From assembly GCA_035528115.1 (NCBI GenBank), contig DATKZF010000003.1:551089-615088 (forward strand): DNA of 64,000 nucleotides. Direction: 5' to 3'. The position numbers were made by a program, and so were the translations under genes. This DNA is from Candidatus Bipolaricaulota bacterium. Lineage in GTDB: Bacteria; Patescibacteriota; Patescibacteriia; UBA11705; DATKZF01. Positions 3,247-54,851 of this stretch are shown here, piece after piece. Below the pieces are notes generated by a model. The model was not told the DNA's origin, ran no database searches, and saw only the letters and a program-made list of their open reading frames with translations. Positions within the stretch are counted from its first letter, which is position 1; each line of letters opens with the position of its first letter.

Positions 3247-4584
3247 ATGGCAAGAACGCTTAATTTGGAGGTTGTAAACAAAAAAGGGGAGGAAGTCATC
3301 ATAAACGGTTGGGTCGATGTCAGGCGCAACATGGGTAAAATCGTATTTCTCGACATGCGCGACCGAACCGGAATTTTGCAGGTCGTTTTGGTGCCAAACG
3401 AATTGGATGACGCTTCAAAAGGCATTTTGGATAATATCAGGCCGCAGTTTGTTTTGGAAATCCAAGGCGTGGTCAATGAACGAAAAGGCAAGAACGCCAA
3501 TCCGCTGATGGAAAGCGGGTCGGTTGAGGTTTTGGCCAAAAGCATCAAAGTTTTAGCTGAAGCGGAAACACTGCCGTATGAGCTCGGGTCTGAAATGAAA
3601 ATGGATACGTATTTGGACAATGCGCCGCTCAATTATCGTGATGAAAAATCCAGAGCTGTTTTTAAAGTCCAATCCGCTTTGATTCAAGGATTCAGAGAAT
3701 TGATGATTGATGAAGGTTTTACCGAATTTCAAGCGCCGAAACTGGTGGCCGAGGCGACCGAAGGCGGAGCCAATGTTTTCAAAATCGATTATTTCGGCAA
3801 AGCCGCGTATTTGGGCCAGAGTCCGCAATTTTACAAACAAATCATGACCGGCGTTTTTGAGCGCGTCTTCACCTGCGGCAATGTTTATCGAGCCGAAGCT
3901 CATCATACTTCAAGGCATGTCAATGAATACACGTCGCTTGATTTTGAAATGGGATTTATTAAAGATCACTCCGATGTCATGGATATGACGCGTCGCGCTT
4001 TAACCGCCATGATGAACAAGGTGGCGAAAACGTGCGACAAGGAAGTTCAATTGCTGGACGCGGCCATTCCCGAGGTGCCGGCGGCCATCCCTTCAATGAA
4101 ATTAAAAGAAGCCGAGAAAATCTTGAAAGATGAATTCGGCGAAAATTGCGAAGGCGAACCGGATCTCGAACCTCACCAGGAAGAATTGATCTGCCAATAC
4201 GCCAAACGCAAATTCGATTCGGATTTTCTTTTCATCACTCATTATCCGGTGGAAAAAAGGCCGATGTACACCATGCCAGACGAAAACGATAAGGGTTTCA
4301 CCAAAAGTTTTGACCTGCTTTTTCGCGGCTGCGAAATCGTCACCGGCGGCCAGCGCATTCACGATTATCAAATGCTGGTTGAAAATATTAAAAAATTCAA
4401 AATGGATCCCAAGGAGTTCGAGTTTTATCTGGAGGCTTTCAAATACGGCATGCCGCCCGAAGGCGGGATTGGCATGGGGCTGGAGCGGGTGACTCAAAAA
4501 TTGCTCGGCTTGGATAATATCAAGCAGGCGACGCTTTTCCCGAGAGATGATGTGAGGATTGACCTGCCTTTGAGTGGAAAATAA
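3247..4584 (+). CDS. aspS: Aspartyl-tRNA synthetase, archaeal/non-discriminating type
   Basis: Class II aaRS with GGQRIHDY, GGIGMGLERV, LFPRDDVRIDLP. The listed ORF starts at 3211, but ATG MARTLNLEVV at 3247 is the more likely start. Confidence 0.8.
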   Translation: MARTLNLEVVNKKGEEVIINGWVDVRRNMGKIVFLDMRDRTGILQVVLVPNELDDASKGILDNIRPQFVLEIQGVVNERKGKNANPLMESGSVEVLAKSIKVLAEAETLPYELGSEMKMDTYLDNAPLNYRDEKSRAVFKVQSALIQGFRELMIDEGFTEFQAPKLVAEATEGGANVFKIDYFGKAAYLGQSPQFYKQIMTGVFERVFTCGNVYRAEAHHTSRHVNEYTSLDFEMGFIKDHSDVMDMTRRALTAMMNKVAKTCDKEVQLLDAAIPEVPAAIPSMKLKEAEKILKDEFGENCEGEPDLEPHQEELICQYAKRKFDSDFLFITHYPVEKRPMYTMPDENDKGFTKSFDLLFRGCEIVTGGQRIHDYQMLVENIKKFKMDPKEFEFYLEAFKYGMPPEGGIGMGLERVTQKLLGLDNIKQATLFPRDDVRIDLPLSGK

Positions 4585-4695: not shown

Positions 4696-5001
4696 ATGAG
4701 ATTATCGAAATTGCAAAAATATATTTTGATCCAGAGCGATCAATATAAGGGCGAGCGATTGCATCGCGATCGATTGGTTGAGTTTTACGGACATGTTCAG
4801 CGAGCCCCGAAATCGGATTTGCAGACGAAAATCATTTCAAGAAGTTTGGAGAGCTTGATCGATAAGGAATTGATGATCGGCTATGGCATGCGCACGCCGC
4901 ATAAGTGGTTCATTAAGGAAATAAAATTGACATCGAAAGGGAAAAAAGAGGCGAAAAAATTGTTGGGGGAACAAATGAGCCTGCCCTTGAAAACAAAATA
5001 G
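4696..5001 (+). CDS. Hypothetical small basic protein (possible DNA-binding)
   Basis: ORF only; the start could be as early as 4660. Confidence 0.3.
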   Translation: MRLSKLQKYILIQSDQYKGERLHRDRLVEFYGHVQRAPKSDLQTKIISRSLESLIDKELMIGYGMRTPHKWFIKEIKLTSKGKKEAKKLLGEQMSLPLKTK

Positions 5002-5003
5002 CT

Positions 5004-5693
5004 ATGTATAAGATAAAAATAGAAAAATTTTCCGGACCGCTGGATTTGCTCCTGCAATTGATCGAGGGCAAAGAATTGGAAATCACCGAAATCTCGTTGT
5101 CGCAGGTGACTGATCAATATTTGGAACATATTAAAAAATTAACGAATAAGCCGGCTGAGGAATTGGCCGATTTTTTGGTCATTGCCGCGAAATTATTGTT
5201 GTTCAAATCAAAAGCCATTTTACCGATTGTCGAGGAAGAAGTCGAGCCGGACGAGCTGGAAAAGCAATTGAAAATGTACAAGGAATATTACGAAGCGAGC
5301 AAAGTCATTGACGCCATGATGGGTAAAGAGAATTTTTCATTCGGCCGCGAAAAATCGCCGATAAAAATGGAAGTGGAATTTCATCCTCCGGAAAATGTTA
5401 ATTCGGCTTCGCTTAAAGAAGTTTTTTTGAAAATTTTGAAGAGATTGGATCCTCTTTTATCTTTGCCGAAAGTGGCCATTGAAAAAACGATCAGCATACA
5501 AGAGAAAATCATGTCCTTGCAAAAAGCTTTGTCTCGATTCAGAAATATCGATTTCAGCAAATTGACGAAAAACGCCAAATCGAAAACGGAAATCATTATT
5601 AATTTTCTCGCCTTGCTCGAATTGATCAAGCGTCGCAGCGTTTTTGTTTCGCAAAATGAAATTTTCGGCAATATTCAAGTAAAAAAAATATAA
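5004..5693 (+). CDS. scpA: Segregation and condensation protein A
   Basis: FSGPLDLLLQLIEGKELEITEISLSQVTDQYLEHI matches the ScpA N-terminus. It is immediately followed by scpB. Confidence 0.8.
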   Translation: MYKIKIEKFSGPLDLLLQLIEGKELEITEISLSQVTDQYLEHIKKLTNKPAEELADFLVIAAKLLLFKSKAILPIVEEEVEPDELEKQLKMYKEYYEASKVIDAMMGKENFSFGREKSPIKMEVEFHPPENVNSASLKEVFLKILKRLDPLLSLPKVAIEKTISIQEKIMSLQKALSRFRNIDFSKLTKNAKSKTEIIINFLALLELIKRRSVFVSQNEIFGNIQVKKI

Positions 5694-50863: not shown

Positions 50864-51021
50864 AGGAAAGAAATTTCTAAAGCGAGGCAAAGGCCTTAAA
50901 ACAAAAGTTACATTTTTTTTGTGAGGAAGACTAAAAAAGTGCCGGCTCGGGCGTGGGCGCTGAATTTAAGTCTTCTTTATTTCCCCCAAAAACCTTTAAC
51001 CCTATTATTATTCCCACTATT

Positions 51022-53103
51022 ATGCCTTACGAAGACAATAAAATTCTTCAAATTCGCAAAAGAGACGATCGCATCGTGGATTTTTATCCGGAAAAAATCA
51101 CCGCGGCCATTTTTAAGGCCATGAAAGCGGTGGACGAGGGCAGTCAGGAGCTGGCCGATCGTTTGTCTGACGACGTGATGGAGAAATTGAACAAAAGGTT
51201 TCATGAACGCTCCATTCCGGCCGTGGAAGAAATTCAGGATATTGTCGAAGAGGTCATGATGTCCAACAACTTGTTCAAGACGGCCAGAGCTTACATCATT
51301 TATCGCGATCAGCATTCGAAAATGCGCGAAATAAAGTCCATGATCAATTCGGATGAATTGATGGAAAGCTATTTGAAAAAAGTGGATTGGCGGGTCAAAG
51401 AAAACAGCAACATGGATTATTCATTGCAAGGATTGAATAATTACGTGGCCTCGACCATCAGCTCGCATTATTGGTTGAATAAAATATATCCTCCTCAAAT
51501 AAGAGACGCGCACGTCAACGGCGATTTTCATATTCATGATTTGCAATTGCTTTCCGCTTATTGCGTGGGTTGGGATTTGCGGGATCTTTTAATCAGGGGC
51601 TTTGGCGGAGTTCACGGCAAGGTAGCCAGCTCTCCGGCCAAACATTTGAGCACCGCGCTGGGACAGTTGGTGAATTTCTTTTATACTTTGCAAGGTGAAT
51701 CCGCGGGCGCTCAAGCGATTTCCAGTTTTGATTTGTTTTTGGCGCCGTTTATCAGATATGACGGCTTGGATTTCAAAGGCGTCAAGCAACAGCTTCAGAA
51801 TTTCCTTTTTAACATGAATGTGCCGACCAGGGTGGGTTTTCAGACGCCATTCACCAATATCACGCTTGATTTGTTCGTGCCGGGCAACATGGCGGAGGAG
51901 CCGGTCATTATCGGCGGCAAGCCTCAGCGGGAAACATACAAAGAATTTCAAAAAGAAATGGACCTGTTCAATGAGGCGCTGGTGGAAGTGATGCTCGAAG
52001 GCGACAGCCGCGGACGAGTGTTCGCTTTCCCGATTCCGACTTACAATGTCAGCAAAAACTGGGATTGGGAGTCGACCATCATTGATCGCATCATGGAAAT
52101 CACGGCGAAATACGGCATTCCTTATTTTTCGAATTTCATCAACAGCGACATGAATCCGGAAGACGCCAGATCCATGTGTTGCCGTTTGCGTCTGGACAAT
52201 CGTGAATTGCAAAAGCGCGGCGGAGGACTTTTCGGCGCCAATCCGCTGACGGGATCGATCGGCGTGGTGACTTTGAACATGGCCAGAATCGGCCATACGG
52301 CCAAAAGCAAAGAGGCGTATTTTCAAAGAGTCGCGGAGCTGATGGATTTGGCCAAAGACAGTTTGAAAATCAAAAGAGATGTTTTGGAAAGATTCACCGA
52401 AGGCGGGCTTTACCCGTATTCCAGATATTATTTGTCCTCGGTGAAGGAGCGATTCGGTTATTTTTGGAAAAATCATTTCAATACCATCGGCCTTAACGGC
52501 GTCAACGAAGCTTGTAAAAATCTTTTGGGAGAAGATATTACCGGTCCGGAAGGCCATAAATTCGCCACGCAGATACTTGATTTCATGAGAGAGCGAATTC
52601 ATCAGTATCAATTGGGCGGTTCGGATTTGTACAATCTGGAAGCCACGCCGGCCGAGGGCACGTCGTATCGGTTCGCCAAAATCGACAAAGAAAAATATCC
52701 GAACATCATTTGCGCCAATGAAAAAGATTATTGCGAAAAAGGCGCTGAGCCTTATTACACCAATTCCACCCAGTTGCCCGTGGATTACACGGAAGACATG
52801 TTGGAAGCGTTGAAAATTCAAGATGATCTGCAGACCAGATATACGGGCGGCACGGTTTTTCACGGATTTATAGGTGAGCGAATGCCGTCGATTGAAGCCA
52901 CGAAAAATTTGGTGAAAAAAATCGCGGAGACATTTCATTTGCCGTATTTCACCATCACGCCGACATTCAGCGTCTGCCCCCAGCACGGCTATTTGTCAGG
53001 GGAACATGAGTATTGTCCGAAGTGCGATGAAGAAATGGGCTATTTGGAAAGTCCGTTGATCGATTGGAGCGGTGAAAAAAAAGCTGAAAAAACGGAAAAT
53101 TAA
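51022..53103 (+). CDS. nrdD: Anaerobic ribonucleoside-triphosphate reductase (class III) catalytic body with N-terminal ATP-cone
   Basis: ATP-cone (ILQIRKRDDRIVDFYPEKITAAIFKA), the NrdD barrel, and a C-terminal Cys/His cluster CPQHGY...CPKCDEE. The tail EEMGYLESPLIDWSGEKKAE is a degenerate glycyl-radical-like motif. Confidence 0.75.
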   Translation: MPYEDNKILQIRKRDDRIVDFYPEKITAAIFKAMKAVDEGSQELADRLSDDVMEKLNKRFHERSIPAVEEIQDIVEEVMMSNNLFKTARAYIIYRDQHSKMREIKSMINSDELMESYLKKVDWRVKENSNMDYSLQGLNNYVASTISSHYWLNKIYPPQIRDAHVNGDFHIHDLQLLSAYCVGWDLRDLLIRGFGGVHGKVASSPAKHLSTALGQLVNFFYTLQGESAGAQAISSFDLFLAPFIRYDGLDFKGVKQQLQNFLFNMNVPTRVGFQTPFTNITLDLFVPGNMAEEPVIIGGKPQRETYKEFQKEMDLFNEALVEVMLEGDSRGRVFAFPIPTYNVSKNWDWESTIIDRIMEITAKYGIPYFSNFINSDMNPEDARSMCCRLRLDNRELQKRGGGLFGANPLTGSIGVVTLNMARIGHTAKSKEAYFQRVAELMDLAKDSLKIKRDVLERFTEGGLYPYSRYYLSSVKERFGYFWKNHFNTIGLNGVNEACKNLLGEDITGPEGHKFATQILDFMRERIHQYQLGGSDLYNLEATPAEGTSYRFAKIDKEKYPNIICANEKDYCEKGAEPYYTNSTQLPVDYTEDMLEALKIQDDLQTRYTGGTVFHGFIGERMPSIEATKNLVKKIAETFHLPYFTITPTFSVCPQHGYLSGEHEYCPKCDEEMGYLESPLIDWSGEKKAEKTEN

Positions 53104-53135
53104 TAATTTAAATAAAAAATAATTAAAATAAAAAT

Positions 53136-53282
53136 ATGGCTTCACAAAAGCTCGAGAGAACGAAATGTGAAATTTATACTCGCGTGGTCGGGTATCTTAG
53201 CCCGGTGCAACGTTGGAACAAAGGTAAAAAAGCGGAGTTTGCCGATAGAAAAATGTACGACGCGACATTGTCAAAATAGCGG
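53136..53282 (+). CDS. Stand-alone NrdD-type glycyl-radical tail peptide (48 aa)
   Basis: MASQKLERTKCEIYTRVVGYLSPVQRWNKGKKAEFADRKMYDATLSK contains the canonical NrdD C-terminal RV.GY...WN.GK..E...R motif. It is a separate frame starting 32 nt after the nrdD stop and is not in the supplied ORF track (below 60 aa). Confidence 0.5.
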
Positions 53283-53361
53283 GGAGTCCCGTTACCATGA
53301 GCCTGTCAGGCTCCAATGGATTTAAGGCCGCGGCAAGCGGTCTTAAGTTTTTCATAGAGAT

Positions 53362-54066
53362 ATGATGAAAATCGGCGGCATGCAAACCTTAACCTTAATT
53401 GATTACCCCGGCGCGGTGGCGGCGACGATTTTTTTGCTGGGTTGCAATCTGCGTTGTCATTTCTGCCACAATCCCGAGCTGGTCTTGGGCGATGAGGCCG
53501 CTGAAAAACTCAATGCCAAAGAAATTTTCGATTTTTTGCAAAGCCGGCGCGAGTTTTTGGAAGGAGTCTGCATTACTGGCGGCGAGCCGACCATATGGCG
53601 GGATCTGCCGGATTTTATCGATAAAATAAAAGAAATGGGTTTTAAGGTGAAACTCGACACCAATGGCACGAATTACAAAATGCTCGGCGATTTGATCAAT
53701 CAAAAGAAAATCGATTACGTGGCCATGGATATCAAGGCGCCGTGGGACAAATACGAACAGGTCGTCGGGCGCAAAGTAAACATTGTTCAAATTAAAAAAA
53801 GCGCGCATTTATTGTTATCCGGCAGTGTGGATTATGAGTTTCGCAGTACGGTTTTGCCGGTCTTGCACAAGAAAGAAGACTTGATCGCCATGGCTCGGCA
53901 GATCAAAGGAGCCAAGCGTTACTATTTACAACAATTCAAACCATTTGCTAAAATGGTAGATAAGGAATACAAAAACGCGGTGTCATACAAAAGCGTTGAT
54001 TTGCAAAAAATAAAAAATCAAATAAAACAGTGGTTTGAAGTTTGTCAGATCAGAGAAAATTTATAA
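53362..54066 (+). CDS. nrdG: Anaerobic ribonucleotide reductase activating protein (radical SAM)
   Basis: CNLRCHFCHN radical-SAM cluster motif and GGEPT. Confidence 0.8.
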   Translation: MMKIGGMQTLTLIDYPGAVAATIFLLGCNLRCHFCHNPELVLGDEAAEKLNAKEIFDFLQSRREFLEGVCITGGEPTIWRDLPDFIDKIKEMGFKVKLDTNGTNYKMLGDLINQKKIDYVAMDIKAPWDKYEQVVGRKVNIVQIKKSAHLLLSGSVDYEFRSTVLPVLHKKEDLIAMARQIKGAKRYYLQQFKPFAKMVDKEYKNAVSYKSVDLQKIKNQIKQWFEVCQIRENL

Positions 54067-54399: not shown

Positions 54400-54720
54400 T
54401 TTGAATATTACGAATCTCTACTTCCGATAGGACAAGCTAGGTTTAGGTTTATCTGTTTTGGTTACGAATTACTAAAGCTGTTTAGCTTGCCTTGGCCTGG
54501 AAATTACGAATCTCTACTTCCGATAGGACAAGCTATGTTTAGGTTTAACTGTTTTAGTTACGAATTACTAAAGCTGTTTAGCTTGCCTTGGCCTAGAAAA
54601 TCGCGAATATCTATTTAAATTAGGACAAGCTAGGTTTAGGCCTTGTTTGTTTTGTTACAAATACAGAATTCCAAATAGCTTAGCTTGGCGATGAAAGCTA
54701 CGAATAATCTTTTTATTAAG
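54400..54720 (+). repeat. AT-rich tandem repeat array (~120-bp units, reverse orientation of the 60640-61070 array)
   Basis: The unit attacgaatctctacttccgataggacaagctaggtttaggtttatctgttttggttacgaattactaaagctgtttagcttgccttggcc is repeated. ggacaagctaggtttaggccttgtttgttttgttacaaata is the reverse complement of the units at 60700. Confidence 0.7.
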
Positions 54721-54851
54721 GAAAAAATTACGATGAGCGGAGAGACAAGCTCTCCGCTGGATAAAAAAATAGGCAATCTTTCTACAAACCCAGCAGAGAG
54801 CTTGTCTCTCTGCTCATCAATATTTATGGCCAAGATTTTTCAGCGCTTGTT

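Follow-up and report, generated by a model that had tools for sequence, protein, structure and literature searches.

A putative natural fission of the class III ribonucleotide reductase NrdD, with its glycyl-radical loop encoded as a separate small protein

Glycyl radical enzymes (GREs) are understood as single chains that carry the radical on a C-terminal loop. The class III ribonucleotide reductase (RNR) considered here departs from this plan at the level of its genes. Its nrdD gene lies on the forward strand of a 64 kb stretch of contig DATKZF010000003.1 (hereafter the window, meaning the whole stretch that was examined) and is followed on the same strand by a small open reading frame (ORF) and by the activase gene nrdG (Table 1). 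The nrdD product, which we term the core, lacks the radical loop, and the small ORF encodes this loop as a free-standing peptide. The two products are co-conserved, evidently translated separately, and between them make up a complete NrdD, beside an NrdG2-type activase. We therefore regard it as very likely that a natural gene fission has occurred in this class III RNR and that the radical loop would be supplied in trans, in a system that is known here from its genes alone. A split NrdD with the radical domain acting in trans was among the explanations entertained in an earlier sequence-only reading of the window, and it is the one that the comparative evidence favours.

Table 1. Coordinates of the features of the nrdD locus in the window, and of the corresponding hairpins at related loci
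Feature	Position	Strand	Description
nrdD core	51022..53103	+	693 aa; ATP-cone, class III RNR alpha/beta barrel, finger loop, Zn ribbon; RVxGY absent
Zn-ribbon motif C-P-Q-H-x12-C-P-K-C	52975..53025	+	residues 652-668; last element in common with canonical NrdD before the break
Post-ribbon linker motif D-E-E-M-G-Y	53026..53043	+	residues 669-674; CD[EAQ]E[MI]G[YF] in essentially all split cores
Variable core C-terminal tail LESPLIDWSGEKKAEKTEN	53044..53100	+	faint Gly-loop likeness in this subclade
Core-peptide spacer	53104..53135	.	32 nt, A and T only; no Shine-Dalgarno site, no stable structure
Glycyl-radical-loop peptide gene	53136..53282	+	47 aa + stop; frame differs from core; predicted radical Gly19 codon 53190-53192
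Hairpin, 12-bp stem + 5-nt loop, then U-run	53320..53353	+	between small ORF and nrdG; terminator- or attenuator-like
nrdG, radical-SAM activase	53362..54066	+	234 aa; starts 80 nt downstream of the peptide gene
Hairpin in relative L004	~4171-4205		with U-run
Hairpin in relative L009	~5334-5365		with U-run
Hairpin in relative L005	~4156-4222		with U-run
Hairpin in relative L014	~5368-5400		with U-run

Core and peptide tile a canonical NrdD

The sequence-only reading had placed a second ORF with a canonical glycyl-radical motif 32 nt beyond the end of nrdD and in another frame. Its coordinates and sequences agree with ours, save that the small ORF, counted there as 48 aa, encodes 47 aa and a stop codon. 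We set the start of the core at ATG 51022, because its homologues begin with M-x-x-x-NKIxQIRKRDD; an upstream GTG at 50953 is a possible alternative, but the homologue starts match the position of the ATG instead. The core closes with TAA at 53101-53103, and its C-terminal end reads ...CPKCDEEMGYLESPLIDWSGEKKAEKTEN / ...FSVCPQHGYLSGEHEYCPKCDEEMGYLESPLIDWSGEKKAEKTEN. Profile searches recovered an ATP-cone at residues 10-99 (Pfam, E = 3.3e-22) and the NRDD domain (PF13597; E = 1.9e-179, 598 bits), with residues 127-690 matching model positions 1-556. NCBIfam NF006126, the closest equivalog model, matched the core with 1027 bits (cut-off 548), the match extending across positions 3-651 of its 684. 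Core residues 159-670 align with residues 101-610 of the Thermotoga maritima NrdD structure 4COI. The finger-loop motif RSMCCRLRLD is present, and its two cysteines, C386 and C387, are invariant across the alignments of split and fused homologues, as are the other catalytic residues. The predicted Zn site of the ribbon, C652-x2-H655-x9-C665-x2-C668, is also invariant (alignments A4, A5); the Zn ligands of T. maritima NrdD follow the pattern CxxxHx6CxxC, His included (PMC4493059). Free peptides or fused tails were misplaced in the MAFFT alignments A1, A3 and A4, which were set aside for the purpose of placing these.

What the core lacks is the RVxGY radical loop: it ends 25 residues after the CxxC, with EEMGY and no Arg. 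The RVxGY motif was found in none of the best 120 core homologues (67-100% identity) and in none of the cores of the 51 split genome loci described below. These 120 homologues, labelled as Falkow-, Kuenen-, Uhr-, Buchanan- and Parcubacteria, end in CPxCD[EAQ]E[MI]G[YF] followed by a short unconserved tail. Three core homologues (P0074, P0078 and P0079) are about 1015 aa long, some 330 aa longer than the others. Separately, the Thermoanaerobacterales NrdDs P0345 and P0395 carry the intein-type Pfam domains PF14890 and PF14528; inteins may occur in this NrdD subfamily.

The product of the small ORF, MASQKLERTKCEIYTRVVGYLSPVQRWNKGKKAEFADRKMYDATLSK, contains a canonical RVVGY glycyl-radical loop. 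Pfam NRDD matches its residues 9-41 with model positions 531-562 of 562 (40.9 bits; cut-off 26.2), and NF006126 matches it with positions 649-683 of 684. These last ~32 positions of the NrdD models are its sole matches in Pfam and NCBIfam, and the latter holds no model dedicated to the small protein. Peptide residues 8-43 align with residues 610-646 of 4COI, the radical Gly621 included. As the ranges of core and peptide on both 4COI and NF006126 meet, the two ORFs tile the canonical NrdD from end to end, with the break falling directly after the Zn ribbon. Across 47 stand-alone peptides C11, R16, G19, P23, W27, K31, E34 and R38 are invariant, and the peptide keeps all the invariant residues of the canonical loop (R, G, P, W/N, K, E, R). 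Over a 33-codon block compared in 15 loci, the ratio of nonsynonymous to synonymous substitution rates (dN/dS) has a median of 0.08 (proportions of differing sites pN 0.13 and pS 0.80, with the synonymous sites saturated), placing the peptide under purifying selection.

Free-standing versions of this loop are numerous in sequence collections. A word-indexed search with the small ORF returned 18 homologues, every one of them 43-67 aa long. Searched exhaustively with HMMER, 1.84 billion cluster representatives yielded 2960 hits at E <= 1e-3. Each of the 150 top-ranking hits has a length of 41-131 aa (median 60), and 139 of the 148 sequences examined begin with Met. Databases name these small proteins either "anaerobic ribonucleoside-triphosphate reductase" or "hypothetical protein". 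The protein identical to that of the window (53136-53279) is HUT22694.1 in NCBI, labelled 'Candidatus Bipolaricaulota bacterium'. Taxonomic labels conflict at this point: the close relatives of the locus are all Patescibacteria, and many related metagenome-assembled genomes bear the unreliable title 'uncultured Gammaproteobacteria'.

Conservation and independence of the two genes

The 47-aa peptide recurs without any change on 9 contigs, which come from independent assemblies. When each GTDB species was represented by one genome, a scan yielded 80 loci with 59-84% core identity, comprising 51 split, 28 fused and one fused but frameshifted (L071). The sequence-only reading had suggested that related genomes be searched for the same small ORF; we found such an ORF downstream of the core in all 50 of the split loci that extend far enough, and nrdG accompanies all 51 split loci of the set analysed. 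The split loci belong to three phylum-level groups, namely Patescibacteria, DPANN archaea (Woese-, Pace- and Nanoarchaeota) and Synergistota, and the fused ones to Thermoanaerobacterales, Syntrophales/Smithella, Omnitrophota and some Saccharibacteria. In a neighbour-joining tree, whose deep nodes lack resolution and would fit one origin of the split as well as several, the unsplit NrdD of L044 nests within the split Patescibacteria clade, which suggests a re-fusion. A phage collection returned three weak matches only, and the one inspected (L183) is a fused NrdD.

The two genes also behave as independent units. Among 48 adjacent core-peptide pairs the small ORF takes a random frame with respect to the core (18/15/15), the cores terminate with TAA (35), TAG (11) or TGA (2), and a median of 4 stop codons in the core frame stands ahead of the motif. 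The intervening spacers range from 0 to 411 nt (median 89) and are unconserved in sequence. The distance from the peptide ATG to the invariant Cys is exactly 10 codons in Patescibacteria and 7-9 codons in DPANN and Synergistota, and GGAGG occurs upstream of this ATG at many loci. In Synergistota nrdG itself stands between the two, the gene order being core, nrdG, peptide. The 411-nt spacer, that of L011 (5064-5476), holds tandem repeats that translate to VVSSVVRCEQCGALWAV.

In other cases the peptide gene occurs apart from the core altogether. A metagenome scan with the peptide profile recovered 80 loci: 32 split ones in which peptide and core are neighbours, 26 fused ones, 16 without linkage and 6 unclassed. 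For at least 5 of the 16 unlinked loci, 3.5 kb on either side contain neither nrdD nor nrdG, and their gene contexts are unrelated to each other. A clear example is the Falkowbacteria peptide gene P0011 (48 aa), seen on at least 24 contigs (among the loci L007 and L093-L102; L093 10001-10147), which follows mraZ-rsmH and lacks an nrdD within 10 kb. Since P0011 shares a sequencing run, and the listed length of the longest contig, with the split core P0041, which has an adjacent 50-aa peptide gene of its own, one Falkowbacteria genome probably possesses two peptide genes.

Two further kinds of loci came to light in these searches. First, L146 (2020-2373) and L176 (659-1027) encode free-standing proteins of 118-123 aa with a CxxC...CxxC ribbon ahead of the NrdD Gly loop, and their flanks contain neither nrdD nor nrdG; they appear to form another type of autonomous NrdD radical domain, larger than the first. 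Second, at L137 (2142-3638) the frame is open from a pheT fragment (tRNA_bind, B3_4) into the peptide gene, with an internal Met preceding the Gly-loop block; this may represent a fusion or a missing stop.

Proposed assembly in trans and competing explanations

We propose that the 693-aa core would provide the ATP-cone, the catalytic barrel, the finger-loop cysteines and the Zn ribbon, and would end in its short variable tail, with the radical loop and the following C-terminal helix coming from a second product of 47 aa that has a start codon to itself. The break would correspond to a stretch at the surface that joins the Zn ribbon to the Gly loop and whose length varies. The peptide would dock non-covalently in the barrel, at the place of the covalent loop in canonical NrdD. 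NrdG would abstract a hydrogen from Gly19 while the peptide is either free or already in the complex, and the radical would then pass to a finger-loop Cys as in the single-chain enzyme. Oxygen cleaves glycyl-radical proteins at the radical glycine, which makes a pay-off in repair plausible: after O2 cleavage only the 5-kDa peptide, and not the 80-kDa enzyme, would need replacing. This would build into the enzyme the repair principle of GrcA/YfiD, the spare part of pyruvate formate-lyase (PFL), and the extra unlinked peptide genes of some genomes would fit the same principle. The structural literature describes a Gly loop that reaches into the barrel to the finger loop and is fully buried, and that, together with the remainder of its glycyl radical domain (GRD), is mobile and must exit the barrel for activation (PMC4493059, PMC11226230). 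The PFL-activating enzyme (PFL-AE), a member of the same activase family, installs the radical on a 7-mer peptide (PMC13450708).

Several points weigh against this proposal. The window's own spacer has no Shine-Dalgarno site. When core and peptide were concatenated and modelled with AlphaFold2 (alignment A5), the predicted local distance difference test (pLDDT) was 27-37 at the core tail, the N-terminus of the peptide and the Gly loop, and below 50 for residues 674-720, against a barrel mean of 75.5, although concatenation into a monomer is a poor test of docking; a fused control, P0292, modelled from an equivalent alignment (A7), reached 70-92 in the Gly-loop region. The advantage in repair is one that we infer. 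On a peptide this small and unbound, a glycyl radical would lack shelter and stability, and activation might precede or follow docking. Finally, the visible DNA amounts to 64 kb, and a second, complete RNR may exist elsewhere in the genome.

We also considered, and rejected, the idea that the peptide Cys (at Gly-8) might act as a Zn ligand in trans. While 191 of 194 stand-alone peptides have this Cys, so do 46 of 53 fused proteins; moreover, the CxxH occurs in both the split and the fused types, and its His is a documented ligand in T. maritima.

A more far-reaching version of assembly in trans can be put forward, though we would not bet on it. Here, the 40-60 aa peptide would be a diffusible and exchangeable radical cofactor that is activated by NrdG off the enzyme, plugged into the core and discarded after O2 cleavage, with the unlinked genes, including those for the 118-123-aa proteins of L146 and L176, serving as spares. 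This would be the first GRE whose radical-bearing element is obligately supplied in trans, and the peptide would be a minimal natural substrate of a GRE activase. Such a system may have arisen once and spread among the candidate phyla radiation (CPR), DPANN and Synergistota.

The nearest competitor is a strict spare part of the GrcA/YfiD kind, in which the peptide would rescue an O2-cleaved NrdD whose primary radical site is the MGY in the end region of the core. The stand-alone form of the peptide with its Gly-radical motif resembles GrcA; the end of the window's core has a G-Y with some likeness to the motif; and some genomes seemingly have a second, unlinked peptide gene, in line with the 16 of 80 metagenomic copies that are unlinked. 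The sequence-only reading had likewise seen the tail as a degenerate copy of the motif and inferred that the radical-bearing end was duplicated. A modest likeness does exist in the window's own subclade, and generic NrdD profiles stretch across the tail. In a Smith-Waterman comparison GYLESPLIDWSGEKKAE of the tail aligns against GYL-SPVQRWNKGKKAE of the peptide with a score of 41 (shuffle p = 4e-4), or p = 0.0015, before correction, once the clade-wide GY is left out. However, as the window's tail is the best of 120 tails (median score 12), this likeness is weak after multiple testing, and the remnant S-x-L-x-x-W-[NS] is common to only the four closest relatives. The tail has neither the invariant Arg at Gly-3 nor the VV before the Gly. 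As the sequence-only reading had noticed, its Gly lies unusually close to the Zn ribbon, 4 residues after the CxxC as opposed to 11 in the closest fused relatives. Homologous core tails are 2-50 aa long, some of them just 2-8 aa, with unrelated sequences, and beyond the GY nothing is conserved across the 120 homologues.

Fused relatives clarify what the conserved part of this region is. In L132 (CPKCDEEKGYNKAKGVAKRKIKRTKCEIYSRIVGY) and L044 (DEENGY) a DEExGY stands in a long linker ahead of a normal radical loop, and the related forms DKENNY (L126) and DRELYP (L121) are found in other fused proteins with a long linker. Because DEExGY is shared by all split cores and by some unsplit long-linker enzymes, we read DEEMGY as a linker rather than a decayed radical motif, and the proposed duplication is for the most part mistaken. 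Given that the fused relatives have 3 to 26 residues between the CxxC and CEVY, the fission fell inside a linker of variable length. What survives of the spare-part idea is the functional analogy. The core has no loop to replace, and the peptide is homologous to NrdD and not to PFL's Gly_radical domain, which leaves this explanation improbable.

The long-linker proteins deserve mention in their own right. L044 (3001-5223), L121, L126/L129 and L132 encode unsplit NrdDs with 18-26 residues between the Zn ribbon and the Gly loop. The DEExGY ... KRxKC flanks of the split genes are also found in L044 and L132, and variant forms of them in L126/L129 and L121. These proteins could be either intermediates or re-fusions.

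Slightly less probable still is that the peptide is a regulator or a decoy, for instance one titrating NrdG, and that the truncated core is inactive or repurposed. The failure of AlphaFold2 to dock the loop would accord with this; but the core retains every invariant catalytic and finger-loop residue along with the ATP-cone, the peptide retains those of the canonical loop, core and peptide are linked in all 50 genome loci that extend far enough, and nrdG was found in all 51 split loci of the set analysed. A dead 80-kDa enzyme is also rarely kept in reduced genomes.

We give hardly any credence to recoding, by which a programmed frameshift, stop-codon read-through or ribosomal bypass would join the ORFs into one NrdD chain. 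The ORFs are near each other, 32 nt apart in the window, and GGN-TAT (Gly-Tyr) occurs both just before the core tail and in the RVVGY of the peptide, making a take-off and landing pair imaginable. Such a hop from GY to GY would nevertheless leave the Gly 4 residues after the CxxC, 7 too few. Against recoding in general stand the random frames, the intervening stops, the spacers of variable length and unconserved sequence, the peptide ATG at its fixed distance with a Shine-Dalgarno site at many loci, the nrdG between the genes in Synergistota and the unlinked copies. The junction offers no RNA element either: the region 53060-53180 has no stable fold (z = -0.17) and matches no Rfam family.

The least credible explanation, to which we assign practically no weight, is that a normal nrdD was disrupted, whether by an indel introduced in sequencing or assembly or by a mutation that inactivated it recently. 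Such cases do exist: L071 (~4780-5190) is a fused-type nrdD with a frameshift within the Zn ribbon and overlapping frames, probably a sequencing error that shows how a genuine artefact looks in this family. In the window, by contrast, the distance from CxxC to CEIY is about 130 nt, compared with 9 in fused relatives, and no single indel would restore the canonical spacing. The recurrence of the identical sequence in independent contigs, the persistence of the split with its small ORF from 59% to 84% core identity and over three phylum-level groups, the random frame, the differing spacers and intervening stops, the peptide's own ATG, the purifying selection on it, the nrdG between the genes in Synergistota, the unlinked copies and the conserved catalytic residues of the core together exclude the artefact that the sequence-only reading had left as an option. 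A split intein or trans-splicing was rejected too, there being no Pfam intein domain in the system, a tail of 2-50 unconserved residues, and ~10 peptide residues before the conserved block.

Genomic setting, known parallels and implications

Between the peptide gene and nrdG lies a hairpin followed by a U-run. The region 53280-53361 folds with -34.3 kcal/mol (z = -3.99), and 0 of 200 shuffled sequences fold as well. A hairpin with a U-run occupies this place in 4 of 5 relatives, its position being conserved and its sequence not. The location of these terminator-like hairpins directly after the peptide gene suggests that core and peptide are transcribed together as a single unit, with attenuation of nrdG expression; as a terminator or an attenuator, the hairpin may set nrdG expression below that of nrdD and the peptide. 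The nrdG product is a clear NrdG2 (NCBIfam TIGR02495, 222 bits; cut-off 131), with Pfam Radical_SAM and Fer4_12 matches as well. The possibility of a special NrdG in split systems was rejected, as the median lengths are 233 aa (split) and 229 aa (fused). Downstream of nrdG, the intergenic region 54402-54690 holds three tandem copies of a ~96-nt unit (100%, 95% and 67% identity), right after which, at 54725-54825, comes an inverted repeat with 36-nt arms that are 86% complementary and 29 nt apart; the latter has a spurious microRNA-like match in Rfam, well below the gathering score.

By every feature tested, apart from a radical loop on the same polypeptide, this system is a class III RNR. It shares with the canonical single-chain NrdD and NrdG of phage T4, Escherichia coli, T. 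maritima (4COI/4U3E) and Prevotella copri (8P23) the ATP-cone, barrel, finger-loop Cys, Zn ribbon, RVxGY loop and NrdG2-type activase. It differs from them in that the loop is a separate gene product, with ~20 extra residues ending the core and ~10 extra residues beginning the peptide.

To our knowledge, the only known trans-acting radical domain is GrcA/YfiD, a repair part for PFL, and the activation of GrcA by its partner's activase is established. The E. coli GrcA/YfiD and the phage T4 Y06I resemble the peptide in being small, free-standing glycyl-radical-loop proteins that act in trans on a barrel enzyme, and they share with it the logic of replacing just the oxygen-labile part. GrcA/YfiD restores oxygen-cleaved PFL in trans (PMC13450708, PMC8683613). 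GrcA, however, is a 127-aa homologue of the PFL C-terminus (Pfam Gly_radical, PF01228) and rescues a partner normally equipped with a loop of its own, whereas the peptide described here is NrdD-derived, is 40-60 aa long, has no PF01228 match and would be the only loop of its enzyme. According to a 2026 review, spare-part proteins are known for no GRE class other than the formate lyases (PMC13450708).

Other parallels concern division into chains rather than the radical itself. The class II RNR NrdJa/NrdJb of Pseudomonas aeruginosa (Crona et al. 2015, cited in PMC9669993) is likewise an RNR catalytic subunit naturally divided over two genes with a C-terminal module on a separate chain. It differs in belonging to the adenosylcobalamin class and in that the separated part is far larger, has IscU-like and Zn-finger domains and is not radical-bearing. 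Benzylsuccinate synthase (beta/gamma) and 4-hydroxyphenylacetate decarboxylase (4-HPAD; gamma) are also multi-subunit GREs with small accessory chains; their radical glycine resides on the large subunit and the small subunits are Fe-S or regulatory (PMC12590467, PMC13450708). In the open-access literature we found no description of a split or trans-acting NrdD or of NrdD spare parts, NrdJa/NrdJb being the sole split RNR encountered.

There is an immediate consequence for annotation: the small genes often go uncalled, or bear the name of the full enzyme or "hypothetical", and the records treat the truncated cores as complete NrdD. If the proposed assembly is correct, it would show that a Gly loop can bind and work non-covalently, and would provide a natural substrate, small and easy to label and mutate, for examining activase recognition and loop extraction. 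Beyond the enzyme itself, the split NrdD is widespread in ultra-small bacteria and archaea, and it would offer a route to oxygen tolerance of anaerobic DNA-precursor synthesis in ultra-small symbionts across oxygen gradients.

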